A stretch of 64,000 bases of DNA from an uncultured Gammaproteobacteria bacterium (lineage in GTDB: Bacteria; Pseudomonadota; Gammaproteobacteria; DRJJ01). The stretch covers positions 129,392 through 193,391 of the forward strand of contig CAMYJU010000007.1 in NCBI GenBank assembly GCA_947258795.1, read 5' to 3'. Every line of letters begins with the position of its first letter. Position 1 is the first letter of the stretch. A program made the position numbers and the translations under genes. The notes beneath the pieces are model-generated. The model saw nothing but the letters and a program-made list of their open reading frames with translations, was not told where the DNA came from and did not search any database. Shown here in pieces: positions 4,853 through 35,406 of this stretch.

Positions 4853-6394
4853 ATGACGACCAGCACCTATAGCCAATCCACCCGCCAGATCCAGCTCAGA
4901 GATTTGCTCAATGATCTGATCAGTCTGAAGGAACGTGTACAGAGTAGCACAGAGGAAGAGATGGCATCACTGATGCTGGACTGGACCAACCGGGACGGGG
5001 TATCCAGTATCCAGAACCTGTTCAACTATATTGTCATGCGTCGTGAGGATCTTCGTCCCTTGCAGCTTCGCCTGGCAGACCATGGTTTATCTTCATTGGG
5101 GCGGGGTGAGCAACAGGTATTGGGTAATATCGACAGGGTCATTGATATATTGTCACGCGCAGTACTGCATCAGCCGTACCAGGACAAGATAAGCAGTATC
5201 CCGGTCGCCAACGATTTCGGCCACAGGTTGATAAGGCAGCGGGCAGCAAAACTGTTTGGTAATCCACCCGCCACCCGGTCGGAATACATTATGGTTACTA
5301 TGCCTGCAGACGCAGCCAGTAACATGAGCTTGCTGGAAAATCTGGTAGCAGGAGGTATGGATACTGCGCGTATCAATTGTGCCCATGACAATAAGAAGGT
5401 ATGGCACAGCATGATTGAAAATATCAGGCACGTGTCCAGATGCCAGAATAAGGAAATCCGCATACTGATGGACCTGAAAGGTCATAAAATTCGTATAAAT
5501 CGTGTTGTAAGCAATGAGGACAAGTCCATCGGGTCGGACAAGAAGCCACCAAGGGTATTCCTATACGATCACCTGGTGCTGAGTCAGGAATGTGACGATA
5601 TCGACTGGTATCAGGAGCGATTTAATGTACCGATCAAACTGGTCGTGGGATGTACCTTCCCGGATGTTCTTGATCGGCTCAACAGGGATGAAACGGTCTG
5701 GATCGATGATGGCAAGATAGGTACTGTGATAAAGGGCAGGGATGAAAATGCCTTGTTGTTGCAAGTTAACCGCGTTGGCCCCAAAGGGGCAAGAGTCAAA
5801 AAGGAGAAAGGGCTTAATTTTCCTCAAGCCACGCTTGATCTGCCGCCTCTAAGCCGGAGCGGCCTGGATGATTTGAAGTTTATTTGCAAGTATGCTGATA
5901 TGGTGGGATTGTCATTTACTGAACGGCCTGAAGATGTTTTGTATTTAAAAGACCGGTTAAGGCGAATTGGTAAGGAGAACTTGCCAATTATTGCCAAGAT
6001 CGAATCACGTCATGCCGTACAGAGGTTGCCGGATATAATAGCGGTATCCATGGCCAACAATATTGATCTGGGTATCATGCTGGCAAGAGGTGATCTGGCA
6101 ATTGAACTTGGCAGCGTCAGGATGGCGGAAATACAGGAAGAGATTTTATGGGTTTGTGAAGCTGCACATGTCCCGGTAATCTGGGCAACCCAGGTATTTG
6201 AATCACTGTCAAAAAAGGGAGTGGCATCTCGACCGGAGATTACCGATGCTGCGATGTCGGTCAGGGCGGACTGTGTTATGTTAAACAAGGGCCCGTATAT
6301 TCATTATGCTGTTTCAGTTCTGGGTGATATCCTGAAAAGGATGGAGGCTCATCAGGACAAGAAGTTTTCCCGCTTGAGGGCATTACATTGGTAG
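4853..6394 (+). CDS. Pyruvate kinase family protein with an N-terminal extension of about 130 aa
   Basis: 513 aa. MDTARINCAHD matches the PK active-site motif MDxARxNxSHG. IMVTMPADAAS and KIESRHAVQRLPDI are PK barrel-like. The N-terminal 130 aa have no PK counterpart. Confidence 0.6.
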   Translation: MTTSTYSQSTRQIQLRDLLNDLISLKERVQSSTEEEMASLMLDWTNRDGVSSIQNLFNYIVMRREDLRPLQLRLADHGLSSLGRGEQQVLGNIDRVIDILSRAVLHQPYQDKISSIPVANDFGHRLIRQRAAKLFGNPPATRSEYIMVTMPADAASNMSLLENLVAGGMDTARINCAHDNKKVWHSMIENIRHVSRCQNKEIRILMDLKGHKIRINRVVSNEDKSIGSDKKPPRVFLYDHLVLSQECDDIDWYQERFNVPIKLVVGCTFPDVLDRLNRDETVWIDDGKIGTVIKGRDENALLLQVNRVGPKGARVKKEKGLNFPQATLDLPPLSRSGLDDLKFICKYADMVGLSFTERPEDVLYLKDRLRRIGKENLPIIAKIESRHAVQRLPDIIAVSMANNIDLGIMLARGDLAIELGSVRMAEIQEEILWVCEAAHVPVIWATQVFESLSKKGVASRPEITDAAMSVRADCVMLNKGPYIHYAVSVLGDILKRMEAHQDKKFSRLRALHW

Positions 6395-6476
6395 CCAGGC
6401 TTTACAATAACAAATCACGTTTATGTAAAATAATATAACGGACTTTAATCCGATGTGGGAAAAGTAGTACCACCCA

Positions 6477-8066
6477 ATGAATAAAGTAGTTGAATTAAGT
6501 CTACCTCAGAATATTCGTATCGATGAGCTAGGAAACGAGCTGGCGAGCCATTTTTCGCTGGAACATGACGGGATAACAAGCGTCAGCCGTACATATCTTG
6601 ATTCATTCGACTGGCGATTATACAGGAAGCGATTACTGTTGTTTGCCGAGACAAGTTCGGAAGGTGTCAGACTGATACTACGCTCACAAGGGCAACCGGA
6701 CACGCAGCGTGTTCTGAATATTGACAGCATCCCTGTTTTTACGTCAGACATTTCGTCATTTGTATTTCGCAACAGACTGGAGCCCGTCCTGCGTATACGT
6801 GCACTGATCCCGCAATTAGTCATACAGTCCCGGGTTAAATGCTTGCTAGCTGTCGACGCCGATAACAAGACGCTTCTTTATATACAATTTGAAAATCCCA
6901 GACTGGCTCTTTCGAACGGTCAGTATCGTATGCTCGGCAAGCGGATTCGGCTGATTCCTGTCAAAGGTTACACAAGGCCTGCTGAGCAGATTCTCCGTTA
7001 TCTGAAAAAAAATTATAAATTTTCACTGATAGGCAAAGACGAATTAGATCAAGGACTGGAATTACTGAATGTTGAGCCTGCTAAATACAGTGCAAAATTG
7101 AAATACAGGCTCAAACCAGATATGACTGCCAGTGAAGCATTGAGGACGATCTTGCTCAAGTTACTGGAGGCCATGAAGTTAAATGAGCCAGGGGTCATTG
7201 ATGATATCGATACAGAATTTTTACATGATTTCAGGGTTGCGGTCCGAAAAACCCGGTCAGCGCTCAGCCAGTCCAGGCATATATTGCCCGATTCTGAAGT
7301 TGAAGCCTTCATGCGTGAGTTTGGATGGATGGGTACAGTTACAGGGCCAGCCCGTGATATGCATGTGTATCTGCTCAAGTTTAACGGATATCAGGCAGCA
7401 TTGCCTGAAGACATCCGGCCTGCACTTGTGCCCTTGAGGGAATTTCTTGTCAGAAAAAAAGGCAAGGAACACGAACGACTGGTCAAAGGTCTGCAATCCA
7501 GTCGATACAAAAAATTGACAGGGGCATGGCGACAATTCCTGGATACGCCTCAAACAGAAACCAAATCGTCTGCAATATCAAAAAAGCCAATCAAGGAGCT
7601 GGCTGATAAACAGATCTGGAAGGTATATCGTCGTGTAATACACGAGGGCAGGAATATTCGTGCAGATTCGCCTGATACAGAGTTGCACCGTTTGCGTATA
7701 AGCTGCAAGAAGCTTCGCTATCTGATTGAGTTCTTTGAAGACCTGTATCCTCGCTCCAGAATCAGGTCTTTGCTGGAATCGTTAAAACAGCTGCAGGATG
7801 TGCTGGGTGATTACCATGACTACTACATACAAATCATTGCGCTTGATCATATCAAGAAACAAATGTCTGATGCAGCGGAATTGTCGATTGAGACTGGTGA
7901 GGCTATTGACATGCTCATGGATGTTCTGCGGACAGAGCAGCAAGATTTACGCAAGCAGTTCAAGGGAAGCTTCAGGGCTTTTGCCCTGAAAAAGAATCAG
8001 GCGAATATTGAAAGCATTTTCGGGCAGCCTGGAAAAGGTAAAAAAGGTGGTAAAGGTGCTGCATAA
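6477..8066 (+). CDS. CYTH-CHAD domain protein (triphosphate tunnel metalloenzyme domain plus polyphosphate-binding CHAD domain)
   Basis: 529 aa. N-terminal CYTH-like region. HDFRVAVRKTRSALSQ, LHRLRISCKKLRYLIEFFEDLYP and LQDVLGDYHD are CHAD helical motifs. Confidence 0.65.
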   Translation: MNKVVELSLPQNIRIDELGNELASHFSLEHDGITSVSRTYLDSFDWRLYRKRLLLFAETSSEGVRLILRSQGQPDTQRVLNIDSIPVFTSDISSFVFRNRLEPVLRIRALIPQLVIQSRVKCLLAVDADNKTLLYIQFENPRLALSNGQYRMLGKRIRLIPVKGYTRPAEQILRYLKKNYKFSLIGKDELDQGLELLNVEPAKYSAKLKYRLKPDMTASEALRTILLKLLEAMKLNEPGVIDDIDTEFLHDFRVAVRKTRSALSQSRHILPDSEVEAFMREFGWMGTVTGPARDMHVYLLKFNGYQAALPEDIRPALVPLREFLVRKKGKEHERLVKGLQSSRYKKLTGAWRQFLDTPQTETKSSAISKKPIKELADKQIWKVYRRVIHEGRNIRADSPDTELHRLRISCKKLRYLIEFFEDLYPRSRIRSLLESLKQLQDVLGDYHDYYIQIIALDHIKKQMSDAAELSIETGEAIDMLMDVLRTEQQDLRKQFKGSFRAFALKKNQANIESIFGQPGKGKKGGKGAA

Positions 8067-8107
8067 GCCTGTGAGGGGATTTCGGTACGTGATTAAAGGC
8101 AGATAAA

Positions 8108-8857
8108 ATGATTGTATATGCCTGCTATAACATAAAGGGTGGTGTTGGAAAGACTGCGACCTCGGTCAATATGGCTTACCTGGCGGCGCAGGGTGGGGCG
8201 CGTGTACTGATATGGGATCTCGACCCCCAGGGTGCTGCAAGTTTCTATTTCAGAATCAAGCCGAAAATAAAAGGGAAGGCCGCCGGGTTGCTGGATAATA
8301 AAACACGCCTGGAAACTTATATCAGGGGCACGGATTATGACAATCTTGATTTGTTGCCCGCAGATTTTTCCTACCGGAATCTGGATTTGCTGCTTGAAGA
8401 GGCCGGAAAGCCACGTGGCAGGTTCAAAAAACTGCTCAAACCTCTGGCACAGGATTATGATGTTGTTGTTCTTGACTGTGCGCCGGGCATTTCCCTGCTC
8501 TCGGAGAGCATATTTAATGCTGCGGACGTCTTGTTGATACCAACCATACCGACCATTTTGTCATTGCGTACATTAAAACAGATTATCAGCTATCGGGAAA
8601 AGCACAGTCTGAAGCATCTTATGTTGGTGCCATTTTTCTCAATGGTAGACAAACGTAAACAACTGCATCGTCAGATTGTCGAGCAACCACCATCACTGGG
8701 GGCACCGATACTTGGTACCTATATTCCGTATGCCAGCGAAATTGAACGTATGGGGATTGAGCGTCGTCCCGTCAATACCTATGCCGGTTCATGTATTGCT
8801 GGCAGGGCGTATATCAGAATGTGGCAGGAAATACTGAGGCTGTCCATGACGCGTTAA
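8108..8857 (+). CDS. ParA/MinD-family P-loop ATPase
   Basis: NIKGGVGKTATSVNMAYLAA deviant Walker A and WDLDPQGAAS. Confidence 0.8.
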   Translation: MIVYACYNIKGGVGKTATSVNMAYLAAQGGARVLIWDLDPQGAASFYFRIKPKIKGKAAGLLDNKTRLETYIRGTDYDNLDLLPADFSYRNLDLLLEEAGKPRGRFKKLLKPLAQDYDVVVLDCAPGISLLSESIFNAADVLLIPTIPTILSLRTLKQIISYREKHSLKHLMLVPFFSMVDKRKQLHRQIVEQPPSLGAPILGTYIPYASEIERMGIERRPVNTYAGSCIAGRAYIRMWQEILRLSMTR

Positions 8858-9010
8858 TACCCGATGTCTCATGTCTGCCTGATATTAAAAAGACGCCGGT
8901 TAAGGTGGTATACTTAATATAAACTAGACTTACATATTGTTCATCCTTGACAGCCTTGATGATGGCTGCATTGTCTACAGGTTTATACCTGAAAGCAGAA
9001 TGAGTCGCCT

Positions 9011-10282
9011 ATGACCGAACTACAGGTCATGCCCTTTGCTCCAGGTGTTGCACGTGGCATGCTGTGTCGCAACCACGATGTCGCGCACGACAGCATTGTC
9101 ATCCTGACCCAAAAGGAACTGGCCGCGTTCAATTTCCGACCGGCCGGTATCGTGGTCGTCGATGGTGCGCCATTGTCCCATCCTATGATCCGGCTGCTGG
9201 GACTGGCTGTCCCTACCGTGATTATCTCCACTGAAGCGGCCTGTAGACTGGAAGAAGGTAGCGAGGTACTGCTCGATGGTACACAGGGACGAATAGCCTG
9301 GCCTGCCGATTCCGATACTGAGCCGGTGCAGGCACCTGAACCACCACCAGCAGGTGAACCAGTCTATAGCGCAGATGGTGTGGCAATTGCGTTACGCGCC
9401 AGTATTGCTGGTGTTGATGCTTCTGCGCGTGCATTGACGCTAGGCGCCTCGGCAATCGGCCTGGTACGTTCCGAGTTCCTGATGCCGGAGACCGGTCGCA
9501 TACCGGATGCAGCATACTTTGATGAAGTCCTGGAAACCATATGTGACCGAGTACGGCCATTGTCAGTGACCGTACGCCTGCCGGACATTGCCGCAGACAA
9601 GCCAGTACCCTGGCTGCCAATGCAGGCTGGTATGACCGGCCCGCTGGGCCTGCAGGGGATACGGCTTTATGACCAGGAGCCGGTTCGTGGCGTTGTCTAC
9701 GCGATGCTGGATGCTGTTACACATCTTTCTGATCGCTATCAGTTCAGGCTGTTACTGCCTTATATAGTTCGGCCTGAGGAGTTTCGTTACTGGCGCGGTG
9801 AAATAATACAACGAACAGGCAAGTCCTTGCCGATCGGGATTATGGCCGAGACACCGGCAGCAGTGCTGGAGATACGGAACTGGTTTGATATTGCCGACTT
9901 TGTTGCGATTGGCTGTAATGACCTGATGCAATGCCTGTTCGCGGTCGATCGTGACCTGCCTGAGTTGCGAGATTACCTTGATCCCTATGCGCCCGTATTG
10001 TATCGCTTCTTGCTGCAGGCGGCTGACGCAGCAGGCAATCATCTGGATAGGGTGCAGTTGTGTGGTCTGTTGGCGCAGATGCCAGGCGTGTTGCCCGTGT
10101 TACTGGGTATGGGCTTCAGTGCCTTTTCGGTCGAGCCGGAAATGATTCCCTATCTGGCAAACACCGTCAGAGAGACTTCCCTATCTGAGGCCCGGTTGCT
10201 CGCCGGGCAGGTCAGTGCCGCCAGGGAGAGTCATCAGGTGCGTGAACTACTGGGAGTACCCGCCTGTGATTCTGGCAGTTGA
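9011..10282 (+). CDS. PEP-utilising enzyme: phospho-histidine mobile domain plus PEP-binding TIM barrel, lacking a nucleotide-binding domain
   Basis: 423 aa. VDGAPLSHPMIRLLGLAVPTVI matches the GGRTSHAAIIAREL phospho-His motif of enzyme I/PpsA. C-terminal IGCNDLMQ matches IGTNDLTQ of the PEP-utilising TIM barrel. Confidence 0.6.
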   Translation: MTELQVMPFAPGVARGMLCRNHDVAHDSIVILTQKELAAFNFRPAGIVVVDGAPLSHPMIRLLGLAVPTVIISTEAACRLEEGSEVLLDGTQGRIAWPADSDTEPVQAPEPPPAGEPVYSADGVAIALRASIAGVDASARALTLGASAIGLVRSEFLMPETGRIPDAAYFDEVLETICDRVRPLSVTVRLPDIAADKPVPWLPMQAGMTGPLGLQGIRLYDQEPVRGVVYAMLDAVTHLSDRYQFRLLLPYIVRPEEFRYWRGEIIQRTGKSLPIGIMAETPAAVLEIRNWFDIADFVAIGCNDLMQCLFAVDRDLPELRDYLDPYAPVLYRFLLQAADAAGNHLDRVQLCGLLAQMPGVLPVLLGMGFSAFSVEPEMIPYLANTVRETSLSEARLLAGQVSAARESHQVRELLGVPACDSGS

Positions 10283-10389
10283 TGTCGATTATACAGGTGA
10301 AAGTGCATCTGTCGCAGGTGTTGCTTTTGACGACTGGACAGATGCAAACGAGACAGGCATCTATACCAGAAATACCGGGATGGGATGGC

Positions 10390-11427
10390 ATGGCATCGCA
10401 AAAACATACGGAAATCAGTATTGACGGCAGTACCGGCGAGGGTGGTGGCCAGATCCTGCGTACATCACTGTCCCTGTCGGTTTGTATTGGCCGGTCTTTC
10501 CGTATTTTCAATATCCGGGCAGCCAGGGCCAGACCCGGCTTACAGCCCCAGCATCTGGCGGCCGTCAAGGCCGCGATGCAGATTTCAAACGCCGTAGTCA
10601 GTGGGGACCAGAAAGGCTCACAGGAACTGGTGTTCAGGCCCGGCAGCCTGGTGGCCGGGGACTATCATTTCTCAATCGGCACCGCGGGCAGTACGACACT
10701 CGTGCTGCAAACCATCCTGCCAGCACTGATACTGGCCGATGCGCCTACAAGCCTGGTACTGGAAGGTGGCACACACAATCCCCTTGCACCCAGCTTTGAC
10801 TTCCTGCAACACAGCTTTTTGCCAATTCTGAATCGCATGGGACCCAGGGTCACCGCGACACTGGAACAACCCGGTTTTGCCCCCCGGGGTGGCGGTCGCA
10901 TGCAGGTGGATGTTCAACCCGTGTCCAGCCTGAATGCGCTAGACATTCCGGAGCGTGGATCTGTTCAGAATCAATATGCCGAGGTGCTGCTGGCGCATTT
11001 ACCCAGGCATATCGCCGAACGCGAATTGGCCACGTTAAAACACAGCCTGGGTTATACGGATGCGCAACTCAGGTTTCAGGACGTGACCCAGGCTTATGGA
11101 CCGGGTAACGCTGTCTCTGTCGTGGTGAGCAGTGAAAACATTACTGAATTTTTTACTGCGTTCGGACAGCGTGGCCTGCCCGCCGAGCAGGTTGCGATCC
11201 GGGTCGTGAAAGAGGTACGTCGTTATCTGGCTGCCGGTGTACCGGTTGGCTCTCATCTCGCGGATCAATTGCTGATACCGTTCGTGCTGGCCGGCGGAGG
11301 CATGTTCAAGACCTTGAAGCCGAGTAGTCATACCTTGACGAACATCGATGTCATTCGCGCTTTTAGTCATAGATGCATCCATACTGAAGAGACAGGTCCT
11401 GATCAATGGATCGTGAGCATAGACTGA
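10390..11427 (+). CDS. rtcA: RNA 3'-terminal phosphate cyclase
   Basis: 346 aa from the internal ATG at 10390. IDGSTGEGGGQILRTSLSLS is the RtcA P-loop-like signature, and LQTILPAL is also conserved. The ORF-track start at 10279 overlaps the upstream gene and adds a non-conserved leader. Confidence 0.85.
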   Translation: MASQKHTEISIDGSTGEGGGQILRTSLSLSVCIGRSFRIFNIRAARARPGLQPQHLAAVKAAMQISNAVVSGDQKGSQELVFRPGSLVAGDYHFSIGTAGSTTLVLQTILPALILADAPTSLVLEGGTHNPLAPSFDFLQHSFLPILNRMGPRVTATLEQPGFAPRGGGRMQVDVQPVSSLNALDIPERGSVQNQYAEVLLAHLPRHIAERELATLKHSLGYTDAQLRFQDVTQAYGPGNAVSVVVSSENITEFFTAFGQRGLPAEQVAIRVVKEVRRYLAAGVPVGSHLADQLLIPFVLAGGGMFKTLKPSSHTLTNIDVIRAFSHRCIHTEETGPDQWIVSID

Positions 11428-11461
11428 AAACCATGTTAATCAGAGGTTCCTTTTGTAGATA

Positions 11462-13480
11462 TTGAAGATGACTAGCCGGAGACATGAACTGCGTGTATTA
11501 AACGCTGACGCGTCTGGGATCATCAGAACCGTGCTGGATACTGACCGGCGCCTGCTGCTGTTCGGTGCACCCGGCACGGGCAAATCGATGCTGGCAGGTA
11601 AACTGGCCGTGGCACTGGCCCGGTCTGGCAGGATTTGCTGGTGTCTCAGTGCTGATCCGGGTTCGCCTGTATTCGGTATCCCCGGTGCGATTAGTCTGGC
11701 CGGCTGGAAAACAGACCACTGGCAAGTCGAGCGTTTTGAGTCTATCTGCAGCCTGGATGGAGGGCGTTTTCGACTGCCGCTGGTCAGCGCGGTACGATAC
11801 CTGCTGCAGCCGCAGCCGGAAGGTGTTTTATTGGTAGACGGGCCGGGTGTGGTGCGGGGAGTGGCCGGGCGAGAGTTGCTGCAGGGGCTGGTCGAAGCTG
11901 CAGGTATCGAAGTGGTCCTGGCGCTGACCCGGCCAGATCGACCGCCACCGCTACTGTCCGAACTACGCGCACTGGTCAGGGAGATTGTTGTCATCCATGC
12001 GGCTGATGAAGCAAAACGACCCGGTAAACGCACGCGCGCCCGCCTGAGAACGACGCAGTGGCAGGCCTATCTCAACTCGGCAGTCGAACAGCAGATTGAT
12101 TTGTCCAGCTTGAACCTGATCGGTACACCACCTCCGCTTGATGAGTCTGCCTGCTGGACGGGTCGCATGCTTGCCCTGTTGCAAGCCAACAGGACGATTA
12201 CTATGGGTGAGGTCCTGCGCCTGGATGGAGAGCAATTAAGCATCAGCGCACCGCCCGTCAATGAAGCATTCGATACAGTGCTGATTCGCGATGCGCAACG
12301 CAATATGAATGGCCAGATTGAAACCGCGGCCCCGTTTGTCAGGGAGGGCTTTGAATTTGTCCCTCCGCCGGAGGTGTTGTCCCTGCCCGAGGATAATGGT
12401 GGGCCACGGGTGCTTGGACGGGTGGGTCCGCTGGACCTGGCATTGGTGAATGGCGTGTTCGGTGATCCCTTGCTGCATCTGCGTATACGTCACCTCGGGC
12501 GCAGCCTGTTATTTGATCTGGGTGAAGGCGGGCGTCTGCCGGCACGTATTGCGCACCAGGTCACCGATGTCTTTATCAGCCATGCCCATATGGACCATAT
12601 CAGTGGTATGCAGTGGTTGTTACGATCGAGACTGGGTGAGTTTCCGGATTGCCGGCTATATGGTCCACCGGGACTGGCCAGGCATATCGCAGGATTCGTG
12701 CACAGTTTTTTATGGGACCGGATTGGTGATCGAGGCCCGGCTTTCATCGTAGCCGAGTTGCATCAAGAGCGCTTGCAACGTTACCGCATACAGGCGGGCA
12801 AAACCGCCAGCGAGCGGCTGGATGATATTGAGCTTGTCGATGGTATCCTGCTGAACGAAAAGGGGTTCCGGGTGCGTGGCATCATGCTGGACCATATGAC
12901 ACCGGTGATGGCCTATGCGTTTGAGCCGGACAATGAAATCAATATCCGTAAGGATCGCCTGCAGGAACAGGGCTTGGAGCCGGGCCCCTGGCTGACGGAT
13001 CTGAAGCGGCAACTACATGCGAATCATGATTCTGCCCTGATCCAGTTACCCAATGGACAGGAAAAACCGGTCAAGGCGCTGGCTGCGGAGCTGGCCTTGA
13101 TCCGGCCAGGCAAACGTCTGGTCTATGCGACTGATCTGGCCGATACCGCCGACAACAGGGAACGTTTGATACGTTTTGCGCATAACGCCCATACCCTGTT
13201 TTGTGAATCCCCGTTTATTAACAGGGATATATTGCATGCAAAACGCAATGGTCATCTGACCACCAGTGCCTGCGGCGAAATTGCATCGGCTGCCGGAGTT
13301 GGACGCCTGGTGACCTTTCATTTCTCACGGCGTTATCAGTATGAACCCCAATTGGTATACGAAGAATTGTATGAGTCGTGCTCCCGTGTGGTGATGCCAA
13401 AGTCCATGTCGGTATTCGACACAGCAGACTCAGGCACATCGATCAGTCTTGAATCAGACAATGATCGGCACAAGACATGA
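11462..13480 (+). CDS. Fusion protein: Clp1/Grc3-type polynucleotide 5'-kinase P-loop domain plus metallo-beta-lactamase (RNase Z-like) nuclease domain
   Basis: 672 aa. N-terminal LLLFGAPGTGKSMLAGKLA...LSADPGSPVFGIPGAISL...GVLLVDGPGVVRG...GIEVVLAL is collinear with the Clp1 motifs GPxxSGKST, DLDxGQ and ViNTxGWv...vvVLd. C-terminal VFISHAHMDHISG is the HxHxDH MBL motif, with downstream His/Asp residues. Confidence 0.7.
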   Translation: MKMTSRRHELRVLNADASGIIRTVLDTDRRLLLFGAPGTGKSMLAGKLAVALARSGRICWCLSADPGSPVFGIPGAISLAGWKTDHWQVERFESICSLDGGRFRLPLVSAVRYLLQPQPEGVLLVDGPGVVRGVAGRELLQGLVEAAGIEVVLALTRPDRPPPLLSELRALVREIVVIHAADEAKRPGKRTRARLRTTQWQAYLNSAVEQQIDLSSLNLIGTPPPLDESACWTGRMLALLQANRTITMGEVLRLDGEQLSISAPPVNEAFDTVLIRDAQRNMNGQIETAAPFVREGFEFVPPPEVLSLPEDNGGPRVLGRVGPLDLALVNGVFGDPLLHLRIRHLGRSLLFDLGEGGRLPARIAHQVTDVFISHAHMDHISGMQWLLRSRLGEFPDCRLYGPPGLARHIAGFVHSFLWDRIGDRGPAFIVAELHQERLQRYRIQAGKTASERLDDIELVDGILLNEKGFRVRGIMLDHMTPVMAYAFEPDNEINIRKDRLQEQGLEPGPWLTDLKRQLHANHDSALIQLPNGQEKPVKALAAELALIRPGKRLVYATDLADTADNRERLIRFAHNAHTLFCESPFINRDILHAKRNGHLTTSACGEIASAAGVGRLVTFHFSRRYQYEPQLVYEELYESCSRVVMPKSMSVFDTADSGTSISLESDNDRHKT

Positions 13481-13582: not shown

Positions 13583-14041
13583 TTAATCTGGAAATCGGTT
13601 GATCCCGGTTTGATTCAGCCACAAATAGATTCAGTTAAGTCAGGTCACATTAACTATTTGAATTAAAAGAGAAATAGTTGTTGTAAAGCGTGATGGGGCT
13701 GTGCAGGGCTATTCATTTGTTTGCCTGTAGACTTGCCTGACCCAGGCACCATGATCATCGGACTGGTCACGGATATATATCTCTAAGTAATTAAAAAAAC
13801 AGGATATTTTCAAAAATATTACGATATGGGGGTGCTGGTCAGTTGTTTGTCGTAAATCTGTAATATTTCTCGTTCACTATGGTTGCCTGAGTAGTGGGGC
13901 GTTATCCCGGGTACGCGGGAATGTACCGAATAAACAACCAGGGACTGATGGCACTGCGTCATCAAGGGAAAACGTTAAGCGAACACAAGCTTAAACTTGT
14001 TACAGACAACAATTTACTTATCAGAAAAATTGGAGGCAACT

Positions 14042-22991: not shown

Positions 22992-23458
22992 CTATGACCC
23001 TGGCAACAACCCAGGAACAATACCTGGCGAAACAAAATGCGGAATACGACCTGCTGCAGCACCATCACACAGGTTCCAGCCATCAGACGGCAGAAGCGGC
23101 ACATATACCGGAAGACCTTATCGCCAAGGCCGTACTGGTACAGGATACAGCCGGCTATATGCTGGTCGTTATTCCGGCCAATAGCCGATTGAGACTGGAC
23201 GATATTTGTCACGAATTCAATCGTAGTCTGGATCTGGCAACAGAGGAAGAAATTTCTGAAGTATTCGAGGATTGCGAACCAGGAGCCGTGCCACCACTCG
23301 GCCCTGCCTATGGCATTGAGACCTTGCTGGATGAATCACTGACCCTTCTGGACGAGGTGTATTTCGAGGCAGGTGATCACAAGCAACTGGTCCACCTGCG
23401 CGGCGAGGAATTCCAGGATTTACTCAGAGATGCCCATCGTGGGTACTATAGCCACTAG
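22988..23458 (+). CDS. YbaK/ProX-like aminoacyl-tRNA deacylase domain protein
   Basis: 156 aa. KAVLVQDTAGYMLVVIPANSRL...GAVPPLG resembles the YbaK/ProRS-editing fold. Confidence 0.5.
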   Translation: MTMTLATTQEQYLAKQNAEYDLLQHHHTGSSHQTAEAAHIPEDLIAKAVLVQDTAGYMLVVIPANSRLRLDDICHEFNRSLDLATEEEISEVFEDCEPGAVPPLGPAYGIETLLDESLTLLDEVYFEAGDHKQLVHLRGEEFQDLLRDAHRGYYSH

Positions 23459-23483
23459 TGTCGAACGGAACAGACCGACAGCG

Positions 23484-24095
23484 ATGCGTTGTGAGTTGGT
23501 GACCTGGCAAAGGTTCTGCGAGTTGTCACGGCGATTGTCACAGATGATTCGTGCCTCGGCGTTCAGACCGGACATGATAGTCGCTATCGGGCGCGGTGGT
23601 TACATGCCGGCACGCCTGTTATCCGACTCCCTGGATGTCTACAACATGACGGGTTTCAAGATCGAACATTATCATGCGGCAAACCGGAAACCGCAGGCAA
23701 TACTGCGTTATCCGCTTTCAGCAAAAGTGGAAGGGCTGAAACTGTTACTCGTTGATGACGTAAGTGATGCTGGCGATACATTTGAACTGGCGGTGTCTCA
23801 TCTGCACGAGTCAGGACCGCCTGCGGAATTAAAAACGGCTGTTTTGCATCACAAGACCGTGTCAAGCTTCATACCGGATTACTACGCAGAAGAACAGACC
23901 GAGTGGCGCTGGTTGATCTATCCCTGGTCGATACTCGAGGACGTCAGCGGCTTCATCAGGGAACTGGATCTGATTGACGCAGGAACAGAAAAAACGCAGG
24001 CAGGTATTGAATCCGCCTATGGTGTCAGAATACCTATCGATGTGCTTGATGATGCCAGGATCCTGTCCAGGCAGTACAGTGAAAATCAGGCATAG
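23484..24095 (+). CDS. Phosphoribosyltransferase (purine PRTase-like)
   Basis: LLLVDDVSDAGDTF matches the PRPP-binding motif. Confidence 0.65.
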   Translation: MRCELVTWQRFCELSRRLSQMIRASAFRPDMIVAIGRGGYMPARLLSDSLDVYNMTGFKIEHYHAANRKPQAILRYPLSAKVEGLKLLLVDDVSDAGDTFELAVSHLHESGPPAELKTAVLHHKTVSSFIPDYYAEEQTEWRWLIYPWSILEDVSGFIRELDLIDAGTEKTQAGIESAYGVRIPIDVLDDARILSRQYSENQA

Positions 24096-26165: not shown

Positions 26166-26591
26166 TTGACATCTCACTTATTTCTGTATCAAAGTAGCGA
26201 TGACAGCTCTATGGCAACAGAAGTCGACCCTGTATTAGGAAACTGGTATCAGCACCTTGGTAAAGGTCAGAAATTCTGCGTGGTAGCGCGGGATGATAGC
26301 GAGGGTAGTATTGAAATCCAGTATTTCGATGGTGGCGTGGAAGAAGTCAGCCAGGATGGCTGGTTTGAACTCGATGTCGAGATGGTGGAGGCACCGGAAG
26401 ACTGGTCCGGTCCGATTGATATTGCCGAAACTGATGATCTGGGTACCCAGATCACCGATACCTCTGCCGAGGACTGGTGTGCTGCGCAGCAGGAAATCAG
26501 GGTGGAGGTGGCGGACGCAGGCCGGTCGGCAGTGGAGGATGTGTGGGAAGAGGATCGTTCCAGCGAAGAGCCATGGGATGACGAGCTATGA
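26166..26591 (+). CDS. Hypothetical highly acidic protein
   Basis: 141 aa, very Asp/Glu/Trp-rich (WEEDRSSEEPWDDEL). No identifiable domain. Confidence 0.3.
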   Translation: MTSHLFLYQSSDDSSMATEVDPVLGNWYQHLGKGQKFCVVARDDSEGSIEIQYFDGGVEEVSQDGWFELDVEMVEAPEDWSGPIDIAETDDLGTQITDTSAEDWCAAQQEIRVEVADAGRSAVEDVWEEDRSSEEPWDDEL

Positions 26592-35017: not shown

Positions 35018-35406
35018 CCGATGAAGCGCTGGCAGATATCCAATTAAAAACAATAACTTGAGATTTTCCGTATAAAAATTGACCAGCTGGAGCTGTTATC
35101 TGGAGTTGCTAGATAGTGCAGTACCAGCGTCGGAAACGCTAACTACAAAAAAAATTCCTCATTTTTCTAAAAGTATTTTTCCTGCCGCCGTTATAGTAAA
35201 TAACGTTTCGTGACAATGGCTACCTGTTGTGAAAACAGCGGGGCGCAAAGTTACCTGCCTGGGACCGATTGGTTATGGTAGAGGGGCTACCGGAGAAACG
35301 ATAAATATCTGCAATTGCCATCAGCAATCCTGCTTTGGGCGGGTAGTGGCCATAGCGGATATCTCCGGCTTCTGTCTTCCTTGCCAGGCCTGACTGAGGA
35401 AGATTT

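Follow-up and report, generated by a model that had tools for sequence, protein, structure and literature searches.

The gene pair studied here lies in a 64,000-nucleotide (nt) stretch of DNA from an uncultured Gammaproteobacteria bacterium (contig CAMYJU010000007.1, positions 129,392 to 193,391), hereafter called the window. It consists of rtcA, encoding an RNA 3'-terminal phosphate cyclase, and, directly downstream on the same strand, a gene encoding a 672-amino-acid (aa) protein in which a Clp1-like polynucleotide kinase is fused to an RNase Z-like metallo-beta-lactamase (MBL) domain. We infer, with a probability of about one half, that this fusion is a bifunctional RNA end-healing enzyme acting on tRNA or tRNA-like RNA, the estimate covering its activities, its substrate and its division of labour with RtcA. 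The predicted domains, the conserved catalytic and arm residues, the retention of both halves in one polypeptide, the genomic linkage and the variants fused to a HAD hydrolase support this reading. A preceding sequence-only reading of the region had quoted the cyclase, the 34-nt gap, the 672-aa protein and the peptides GAPGTGKS, LLVDGPGVVRG, IEVVLAL and HAHMDH, all of which were found in place, and its assignment of RtcA, a Clp1-type kinase and an RNase Z-type MBL agrees with Pfam and NCBIfam profile searches and with a fold search.

Domain architecture of the fusion protein

The fusion gene occupies positions 11462..13480 of the forward (+) strand, starting from TTG 11462; an alternative in-frame ATG at 11468 is the start of the NCBI protein P0001 (670 aa). 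Its product contains SADPGSPVFGIPG together with LLVDGPGVVRG and IEVVLAL, while GAPGTGKS is encoded at 11564-11587 and HAHMDH at 12581-12598. Along the polypeptide, and all on the + strand, there follow a Clp1-like P-loop polynucleotide-kinase domain (~aa 10-215, 11489..12106), recognised by Pfam CLP1_P, invariant residues, Foldseek and a predicted local distance difference test (pLDDT) score of ~85-90; a beta-rich middle domain (~aa 216-292, 12107..12337), with AlphaFold2 strands at 218-288; a low-confidence linker (~aa 293-337, 12338..12472, pLDDT 33-47); and an RNase Z-like MBL domain (~aa 338-647, 12473..13402), recognised by NCBIfam, PDB and Foldseek matches and by invariant residues. The AlphaFold2 model, for which 23 homologues were used, reaches a pLDDT of 77 on average and a predicted template-modelling score (pTM) of 0.54, and is confident at residues 10-290 and 340-647. 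Residue conservation was assessed in an alignment of 23 homologues with 56-73% identity, to which all statements of invariance below refer.

The N-terminal third matches Pfam CLP1_P with 43.3 bits, against a cut-off of 26.6. Sequence searches of the PDB with the kinase half returned generic P-loop matches only, and the Clp1 identity came from the fold search, in which the N-terminal ~300 residues matched human CLP1 (in the TSEN complex) and C. elegans Clp1 with an E-value of 1e-14, yeast Clp1 with an E-value in the range of 1e-14 to 1e-12, and Grc3 of the Las1-Grc3 complex with 1e-10. The Walker A motif reads G35APGTGKS42, in which G35, G38, G40 and K41 are invariant and S42 is present in at least 90% of the sequences. 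The Walker B-type Asp D65 (in ADPGSP) and D126 (in VDGPGVVRG) are likewise invariant, so that the catalytic Lys and Asp, K41 and D65, are both retained throughout. The lid, R186PGKRTRARLRT197, fits the pattern RxxxxR and is largely invariant (R186-P-G-K-R-x-R-A-x-x-R196-T). The kinase half is Clp1-like but divergent, and 5'-OH kinase activity is predicted for it from these motifs. In the middle domain, N218, G221, PPP223-225, W232, G234, R235, R276, D277 and A278 are invariant; because this domain lies inside the ~300-column Foldseek alignment to Clp1, it probably corresponds to the Clp1 C-terminal domain.

The C-terminal half matches Pfam Lactamase_B_2 with 46.1 bits (cut-off 27), and the NCBIfam model PRK02126, 'ribonuclease Z', matches residues 325-646 over nearly its whole length with 279 bits; a weak NCBIfam match to cyclic-nucleotide phosphodiesterase was also obtained. 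Both phmmer and profile searches of the PDB with this half returned the RNase Z proteins of E. coli and B. subtilis and human ELAC1. Foldseek returned B. subtilis RNase Z bound to tRNA (4gcw and 2fk6, E-value 1e-16), and its matches include ELAC1 and rice TMS5 (3zwf and 7xgt). The candidate metal ligands H374xH376xD378H379, H478, D558 and H620 are invariant and aligned with those of RNase Z, and 'FCES' and 'GHLTT' stand at the places of the RNase Z HEAT and HST motifs.

A counterpart of the RNase Z flexible arm, the tRNA-binding exosite, is encoded at 12929..13096 (+) and contains ...RKDRLQEQGLEPGPWLTDLK..., which aligns with 'LKAAGVPPGPLFQELK' of E. coli RNase Z/ZiPD and with 'LKEMNIPPGPVYQKIK' of B. 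subtilis RNase Z. The GP motif of the arm reads GLEPGPWLTDLK, as compared with GVPPGPLFQELK in E. coli RNase Z. Residues R496, K497, L500, G508, W510, L511, L514, L529 and P530 of the arm are invariant, and the AlphaFold2 model folds it as helix-helix-strand-strand with a pLDDT of 81-93.

The PRK02126 subgroup seems uncharacterised. Stand-alone genes of the PRK02126 type, with 32-37% identity to the C-terminal half of the fusion, stand isolated on alphaproteobacterial megaplasmids, as in a plasmid of Methylocella tundrae (L087, 5977-7002) and one of Rhizobium sp. Q54 (L088, 5977-6993), and no kinase gene adjoins the stand-alone genes on these megaplasmids. Since its MBL half scores under the RNase Z cut-offs and its kinase half is without two of the Clp1 motifs, both labels keep the suffix "-like": judged by its sequence, the 672-aa protein is RNase Z-like and Clp1-like and is assigned to neither orthologous group.

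The rtcA gene and its position next to the fusion gene

The rtcA gene and the fusion gene are the last two of six same-direction genes (4853-13480, +), which are followed by pstS-pstC-pstA-pstB-phoU. The mechanical open reading frame (10279-11427), which starts at TTG 10279 and contains IDGSTGEGGGQILRT, is longer than the gene proper: RtcA homologues are 338-345 aa long, and therefore the true start of rtcA is ATG 10390, giving a gene at 10390..11427 (+) and a product of 345 aa. The corresponding NCBI protein, P0275 (381 aa), apparently starts ~36 codons too far upstream, at a position that overlaps the stop of the preceding gene, encoding a phosphoenolpyruvate (PEP)-utilising enzyme, and crosses a terminator-like hairpin (window 10279-10389). 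RtcA matches the NCBIfam equivalog model NF003246 with 424.1 bits (cut-off 352) and TIGR03399 with 365 bits (cut-off 250), and both Pfam RTC and RTC_insert match it. Its translation contains GSHLADQL, in which GSHLADQ would correspond to the motif round the adenylylated histidine of E. coli RtcA (His309). By these profile matches RtcA is a genuine, ordinary member of its family, with predicted cyclase activity.

The spacer between the two genes (11428..11461, +; 34 nt) carries a Shine-Dalgarno-like AGAGG and is without a terminator-like site, and the two genes are probably co-transcribed. The hairpin mentioned above (10305..10321, +), between the PEP-utiliser stop (10282) and the rtcA start, comes from a consensus scan that provides weak evidence, with 14 terminator-like sites in the window against 8.9 +/- 2.7 expected in shuffled sequences; if real, it would make rtcA and the fusion gene a transcription unit apart from the four upstream genes.

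As the sequence-only reading had noted, the partners of a canonical Rtc operon are missing here. RtcB was not detected in the 64-kb window, either by tblastn with the RtcB encoded near another fusion gene (locus L057) or by a signature-motif search. The sigma54-activator motif GAFTGA occurs in no frame of the window, and hence, at the level of this motif test, the window holds no canonical RtcR.

Size and distribution of the fusion family

A word-indexed search found at least 1,347 clusters at 90% identity that match the fusion with an E-value of at most 1e-5, and the best 120 of these 1,347 have nearly all the same architecture and length. Their database names include 'Clp1/GlmU family protein' (NCBI), 'ribonuclease Z' and 'ribonuclease BN', and Chromatiales, Methylococcales and Nitrosomonas are among the groups represented. 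When one genome per species was scanned with an alignment, 169 relatives were obtained and 80 were kept, a scan with the single protein having given no match. The kept 80 come from Chromatiales and other sulfur oxidisers, Methylobacter, Methylomicrobium, several Nitrosomonas and Thiodiazotropha symbionts, together with a few Nitrospinota, Nitrospiraceae and Desulfobacterota, and a metagenome scan returned 18 loci, mostly short. The fusion is, by these searches, a coherent and widespread bacterial family.

The two halves are kept together throughout this distribution. Used alone as a phmmer query, the kinase half recovered only 347 relatives from 1.84 billion representative proteins, the full-length ones measuring 617-697 aa, and did not reach canonical Clp1 proteins. 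Two-gene (split) versions were sought among these relatives and none was found, the short kinase-half matches looking like fragments, truncations or frameshifts; in the sequences recovered, the kinase module occurs essentially never without the MBL module. Two homologue clusters are tri-domain proteins, P0073 (897 aa) and P0080 (878 aa), with an extra C-terminal HAD hydrolase whose motif I reads 'FDFGGV', and a separate HAD gene, 51-64% identical, lies within ~8 kb of the fusion gene in L008 (18434-19036) and L044 (5354-5965).

Two other roles for the family were considered and are unsupported. The 72,556 plasmids and 50,697 phages searched contain no full-length copy, as might have pointed to a mobile element, and PADLOC, consulted for anti-phage defence, gives only P-loop-level matches (E-value ~5e-4).

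The rarity of Clp1 kinases in bacteria, mentioned in the sequence-only reading, is borne out by a survey that found them in 14 of 1,543 species (PMC6777427). The text of that paper calls bacterial Clp1 extremely rare and does not mention lactamase, RNase Z or a fusion; its Supplementary Fig. S3 names hosts of the fusion (Methylobacter tundripaludum, Nitrosomonas sp. Nm166). The same reading had held the fusion to be undescribed, and this stands insofar as no paper analysing a Clp1-RNase Z fusion was found by full-text searching of the literature, where the RNA-repair survey of Burroughs and Aravind (2016) may list the architecture; it does not stand for the protein itself, which is represented by at least 1,347 clusters and carries the NCBI product name given above. 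The fusion is therefore real, widespread and, in the literature found, functionally unstudied, while being less exceptional than first held.

Genomic neighbourhood

Gene neighbourhoods were compared at the 80 species loci, taking up to 10 kb on each side, and in a wider panel of 102 loci. By tblastn, RtcA is encoded within 10 kb of the fusion gene at 6 of the 80 (L002, L004, L006, L013, L018 and L064), and the linkage is seen at 8 of the 102. The arrangement differs from locus to locus: RtcA is followed by the fusion in the window and in L006; a THUMP gene stands between them in L002; the fusion precedes RtcA in L018; the two are divergent in L013 and L064; and the order is fusion, MJ1316, RtcA in L085, which was found from the RtcA side. 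In a neighbour-joining tree calculated from 75 fusion proteins, the RtcA-linked loci are scattered over at least six distinct positions, and the RtcA proteins of L013 and L018 show 41-44% identity. A rough estimate, assuming one randomly placed rtcA in a 3-4 Mb genome and a 20-kb interval, puts the chance of such linkage at less than 1% of genomes, that is, fewer than one of 80 loci, compared with the six observed.

Further genes of RNA-end metabolism recur in the panel. A stand-alone THUMP gene lies near the fusion gene in L002, L004, L064, L076 and L097, in the last of these followed by the fusion; MJ1316 is found in L076 and L085, Prim-Pol in L076 and L032, and RtcB 2-3.5 kb upstream of the fusion gene in L057 and L073. 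MJ1316, for which the Pfam name is 'RNA cyclic group end recognition domain', is described as recognising 2',3'-cyclic RNA ends (PMC6514570). In L076 the genes for a SixA-like protein, THUMP, Prim-Pol, MJ1316 and the fusion follow one another on one strand (7537-11980), an array that looks like an RNA-repair-type operon without RtcA. This locus belongs to an uncultured gammaproteobacterium from a metagenome (ES_Gamma_035), and its Prim-Pol protein carries PriCT_1.

A conserved operon was sought and rejected: no family occurs in more than 11 of the 80 loci when 1,102 flanking open reading frames are clustered by BLAST, nor in more than 5 of 138 immediate neighbours in a Pfam census. The recurrence of RtcA linkage in varied layouts and on varied branches, together with that of MJ1316, THUMP, Prim-Pol and RtcB, nevertheless supports a loose functional link. 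What the neighbourhoods support is a loose, optional genomic association of the fusion gene with the orphan-RtcA neighbourhood, not an operon; of the RtcA-fusion cassette that the sequence-only reading had proposed, the recurrent and varied linkage survives, whereas the fixed partnership does not.

The orphan-RtcA neighbourhood is itself recognisable without the fusion. Close orthologues of the window RtcA usually sit in the order MJ1316, RtcA, PRTase (a phosphoribosyltransferase), with DUF6763 nearby and without RtcB or the fusion gene. Orphan rtcA orthologues of this kind, with 57-63% identity, are present in L083 (6700-9025, Sulfuriflexus mobilis), L084 and L086, DUF6763 being encoded on the other strand; the array of L084 is followed by the gene for a beta-CASP MBL nuclease. 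The PRTase family is also found near the fusion gene in L044, L045, L048, L057, L073 and L104, and DUF6763 is a neighbour of the fusion gene at 9 loci, as it is of rtcA in L083 and L084.

The genes upstream of rtcA in the window were considered as part of the same unit, and this was not upheld: the pyruvate-kinase-like, CHAD and ParA genes are without a tblastn match near the fusion gene in other loci, and a PEP-utiliser is near it in only two others (L019 and L022). In five Nitrosomonas species (L009, L015, L025, L027 and L028) a macro-domain protein is encoded near the fusion gene, directly upstream on the opposite strand in three of them and 3-4 kb away in two, which is lineage-specific synteny.

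Proposed function

The chemistry of the enzyme classes constrains how the three activities could be combined. Two-metal MBL nucleases (RNase Z, RNase J, CPSF73) leave 5'-phosphate and 3'-OH ends, Clp1 kinase needs a 5'-OH, and RtcA needs a 3'- or 2'-phosphate; metal-independent nucleases leave 5'-OH together with 2',3'-cyclic or 3'-phosphate. Because the products of the MBL domain would suit neither the kinase nor the cyclase, we propose that the three activities converge on ends made by other nucleases. The 5'-OH and 2',3'-cyclic phosphate or 3'-phosphate ends would arise from metal-independent ribonucleases or spontaneous cleavage and not from the MBL domain, with toxins, anticodon nucleases and RNase I-type enzymes as candidate sources.

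On this proposal, the RNase Z-like half, with all metal ligands and the tRNA-clamping arm, would dock a tRNA-shaped substrate, and its MBL domain would clear the blocked or damaged 3' end, either by cutting off terminal nucleotides or by removing a 2',3'-cyclic phosphate, to give a 3'-OH. A precedent exists in short RNase Z (tRNase ZS/ELAC1), which strips the 2',3'-cyclic phosphate from CCA-less tRNA and so allows CCA re-addition (bioRxiv 10.1101/2021.08.05.455008), and rice TMS5 carries out the same removal (PMC11897441). The Clp1-like half would convert 5'-OH to 5'-phosphate at the expense of ATP, and a bacterial Clp1, that of Thermus scotoductus (Ts-Clp1), is an RNA 5'-kinase (PMC6777427). 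RtcA would turn 3'- or 2'-phosphate ends into 2',3'-cyclic phosphate, presenting the MBL domain or a partner with a single form, and in some genomes the THUMP and MJ1316 partners may help to target tRNA-like RNA. The outcome would be RNA with 5'-phosphate and 3'-OH ends, open to rebuilding by the CCA-adding enzyme, to sealing by an ATP-dependent ligase, or to decay through 5'-phosphate-stimulated RNase E and 3' exonucleases.

A narrower form of this proposal, which we regard as tentative and rather unlikely, makes the fusion the core of a ligase-independent bacterial tRNA-recycling pathway, a counterpart of ELAC1/TRNT1 plus CLP1 in one polypeptide. In it, the RNase Z arm, with THUMP or MJ1316 helping, would recognise tRNAs whose ends ribotoxins or ribosome-rescue nucleases had damaged; RtcA would make the 3' ends uniformly cyclic, the MBL domain would strip them to 3'-OH, CCA would be re-added, and the Clp1-like half would re-phosphorylate the 5'-OH. 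Orphan RtcA would thereby gain a defined role.

Several observations weigh against the end-healing reading. The first group concerns the protein itself. The Walker B Gln and the clasp Trp of Clp1 contact RNA, and both are replaced across the family: the DxxQ motif (e.g. DVGQ) reads D-P-G-S, with Ser for Gln, and the clasp [TSL]xGW reads D126-G-P-G-V, with Val for Trp, the latter matched by position and without superposition. Of the full Clp1 motif set claimed by the sequence-only reading, the Walker A motif, the Walker B Asp and the Arg lid are thus present, whereas these two residues are not, and the phosphate acceptor could differ. The MBL domain lies under all curated RNase Z cut-offs (279 against 315 bits for PRK02126, 109.5 against 293 for TIGR02651 and 99.7 against 252 for PRK00055.1-3), and the only RNase Z enzymes known to remove a cyclic phosphate are eukaryotic short forms. 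The pTM of 0.54 and the disordered linker at residues 293-337 make the model uninformative on the cooperation of the two active sites; with a pLDDT of 33-47 in that linker, the relative orientation of the two halves is not given by it.

The second group concerns genomic context. In the assembly that contains L076, RtcA, followed by PRTase, is on another contig (L086). About 70 of the 102 loci are without any RNA-end gene nearby, and the commonest immediate neighbours (PGA_cap, GGDEF/EAL and CheR-like methyltransferase) are unrelated. No ligase lies consistently nearby in the loci examined.

Alternative explanations

It is unlikely, in our view, that the Clp1-like half, instead of being a polynucleotide kinase, binds ATP as a regulatory module or scaffold, the role that Clp1 plays in yeast CF IA. 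The protein would then be a specialised RNase Z, a plain nuclease of tRNA 3' processing or turnover, and the adjacency of RtcA would be mechanistically meaningless. The family-wide replacement of the clasp Trp and Walker B Gln of active Clp1 kinases would fit such a role, the comparison being with the motif table of Saito et al. (PMC6777427), in which the motifs, including DxxQ and TxGW, are conserved in the characterised Clp1 proteins. The unrelated neighbours at most loci would also fit, as would the presence among the fold matches of yeast Clp1, which binds ATP without kinase activity. A pure scaffold, however, would not be expected to keep the catalytic Lys, the Ser, the general-base Asp and the Arg-rich lid invariant, and the recurrent linkage to RtcA, MJ1316 and RtcB, like the fusions to a HAD phosphatase, points to end chemistry and not to plain trailer removal.

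Quite doubtful, too, is a role in phosphate or nucleotide salvage, with a non-RNA phosphoester (a nucleotide, an ADP-ribose derivative, a phosphosugar or a cyclic nucleotide) or DNA ends as substrate. The gene pair does lie between a pyruvate-kinase-like/CHAD/ParA/PEP-utiliser cluster and pstSCAB-phoU, PRTase, NUDIX, macro-domain and SixA-like phosphatase genes are loose recurrent neighbours, and the altered Clp1 motifs would suit another acceptor. MBLs of the ElaC/PhnP branch moreover include small-molecule phosphodiesterases, in keeping with the weak cyclic-nucleotide phosphodiesterase match. The small-molecule enzymes of this branch are, however, not known to carry the arm, whereas the fusion keeps an invariant tRNA-binding arm with its GP motif, and tRNA-bound RNase Z and RNA kinases head its fold and sequence matches. 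Nor does the context generalise, the pyruvate-kinase-like, CHAD and ParA genes being near the fusion gene in no other locus and the macro-domain neighbours being confined to a Nitrosomonas clade.

We give similarly little credence to the view that the fusion is real while its adjacency to rtcA in the window is leftover or chance synteny, without functional coupling. The linkage is indeed confined to 8 of 102 loci, and the common loose neighbours (DUF6763, nitroreductase, PRTase and PolX) could reflect a decaying ancestral order. Against this stand the excess over the rough chance expectation, the at least four arrangements spread over at least six positions of the tree, the RtcA identity of only 41-44% in L013 and L018, and the linkage of MJ1316, THUMP and RtcB to the fusion independently of RtcA.

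Least of all do we favour the self-contained cassette of the sequence-only reading, in which cleavage of RNA by the MBL domain would create a 5'-OH for the fused kinase to phosphorylate and a 3'-phosphate for RtcA to cyclise: two adjoining genes, with 34 nt and no terminator between them, encode all three activities, and Las1-Grc3 offers a nuclease-kinase precedent with Grc3 among the fold matches, but the order fails on established enzymology, as an RNase Z-type two-metal MBL yields 3'-OH and 5'-phosphate, substrates for neither enzyme, while Las1 is a metal-independent HEPN nuclease that leaves 5'-OH and cyclic phosphate, so that the analogy does not extend to an MBL, and the absence of RtcA from 74 of the 80 species loci means that it is not an obligatory third step.

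Comparison with known systems

The protein shares features with several characterised systems and coincides with none of them. With the short RNase Z/ElaC enzymes (B. subtilis RNase Z, E. coli RNase BN/ZiPD, human ELAC1 and rice TMS5/RNase ZS1) it has in common the MBL fold, the HxHxDH motif, the downstream His, Asp and His ligands and a flexible arm with a GP motif; unlike them, it is joined to ~330 N-terminal residues (kinase and middle domain), its MBL domain is only 18-22% identical to theirs, and the nearest profile is the PRK02126 subgroup instead of the canonical rnz/rbn families. RNase Z itself functions as a dimer. With Clp1/Grc3/Nol9 proteins, including archaeal Clp1 and that of Thermus scotoductus, it shares a P-loop kinase fold followed by a C-terminal domain, but it is without the Clp1 N-terminal domain and has the Walker B Gln and clasp Trp replaced. 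Its kinase is joined to a nuclease-type domain, whereas Clp1 and Grc3 are subunits of the TSEN, CF IIm or Las1 complexes.

Knowledge of RNA end-healing in bacteria comes mainly from three sources: phage T4 Pnkp, Pnkp-Hen1 and the RtcBA operon. The logic of T4 Pnkp, Clostridium thermocellum Pnkp and the kinase-cyclic phosphodiesterase part of the fungal and plant tRNA ligases Trl1/AtRNL, a 5'-OH kinase and a 3'-end phosphoesterase in one polypeptide, is also that of the fusion, in which, however, the kinase is Clp1-like and not T4 Pnk-like, the 3' module is an RNase Z-type MBL instead of a HAD, calcineurin-like or 2H phosphoesterase, and neither a ligase nor a Hen1 partner is fused to it or regularly found beside it. 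The tri-domain variants add a HAD hydrolase, HAD being the phosphatase class of T4 Pnkp, whose architecture is that of a kinase plus a HAD phosphatase. As in the RtcB-RtcA-RtcR operon, the window has a genuine RtcA, and RtcB is near the fusion gene at two other loci; without a detected RtcB or a GAFTGA-type sigma54 activator, the window does not hold a canonical Rtc operon.

Coupling of an RNA nuclease to a Clp1-family kinase is also seen in Las1-Grc3, TSEN-CLP1 and, in the mRNA 3'-end machinery, CPSF73-CLP1, where CPSF73 is likewise an MBL. Those assemblies are multi-subunit, whereas the fusion is covalent; and the kinase of Las1-Grc3 and TSEN acts on a 5'-OH generated by the nuclease, an end that the MBL chemistry of the fusion should not give.

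Through this family, many bacteria of environmental importance, among them methanotrophs, ammonia oxidisers, sulfur oxidisers and symbionts, possess a Clp1-like kinase that is permanently linked to an RNase Z-type domain. With both domains active, the protein would solve the kinase-plus-3'-phosphoesterase problem in a new way and would be a natural prokaryotic counterpart of the eukaryotic systems that couple nucleases to Clp1-family kinases, and, if the end-healing reading is true, it would offer a possible role for orphan RtcA without RtcB. As the protein is a single soluble-looking polypeptide with cultured hosts (Methylobacter, Methylomicrobium and Nitrosomonas), these predictions are directly testable.

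Flanking genes and other features of the window

The four same-direction genes upstream of rtcA (4853-10282, +) encode a pyruvate-kinase-like protein, which scores 540 bits with PRK14725, under the cut-off of 642; a CHAD-domain protein of 529 aa; a ParA/MinD-type ATPase; and a truncated PEP-utilising enzyme, in which only the mobile and PEP-binding domains (EI/PPDK-like) are present and the first ~30 residues are unmatched. CHAD domains bind polyphosphate, and these genes could be a polyphosphate or PEP phosphotransfer cluster.

Downstream of the fusion gene, a 516-nt spacer precedes the pst operon and suggests that pstS has its own promoter. A Pho-box search gave a single weak candidate ahead of pstS and no convincing site before rtcA or the fusion gene; the candidate is a Pho-box-like direct repeat, TTGTCGTAAATCTGTAAT, at 13847-13864 (+), with 3 mismatches to CTGTCATnnnnCTGTCAT and ~130 nt upstream of pstS. 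Beyond pstSCAB-phoU, 10 kb from the gene pair, a PRTase gene (23373..24095, +; Pfam Pribosyltran) encodes a protein 46% identical to the PRTase adjoining rtcA in Sulfuriflexus (L083), and a DUF6763 gene (26211..26501, +; Pfam DUF6763, E-value 5e-29) lies further on. The window contains no tRNA genes. The sole Rfam family found in it is a cyclic di-GMP-I (c-di-GMP-I) riboswitch at 35208-35294 (+), which matches RF01051 with 49.9 bits against a gathering score of 35.

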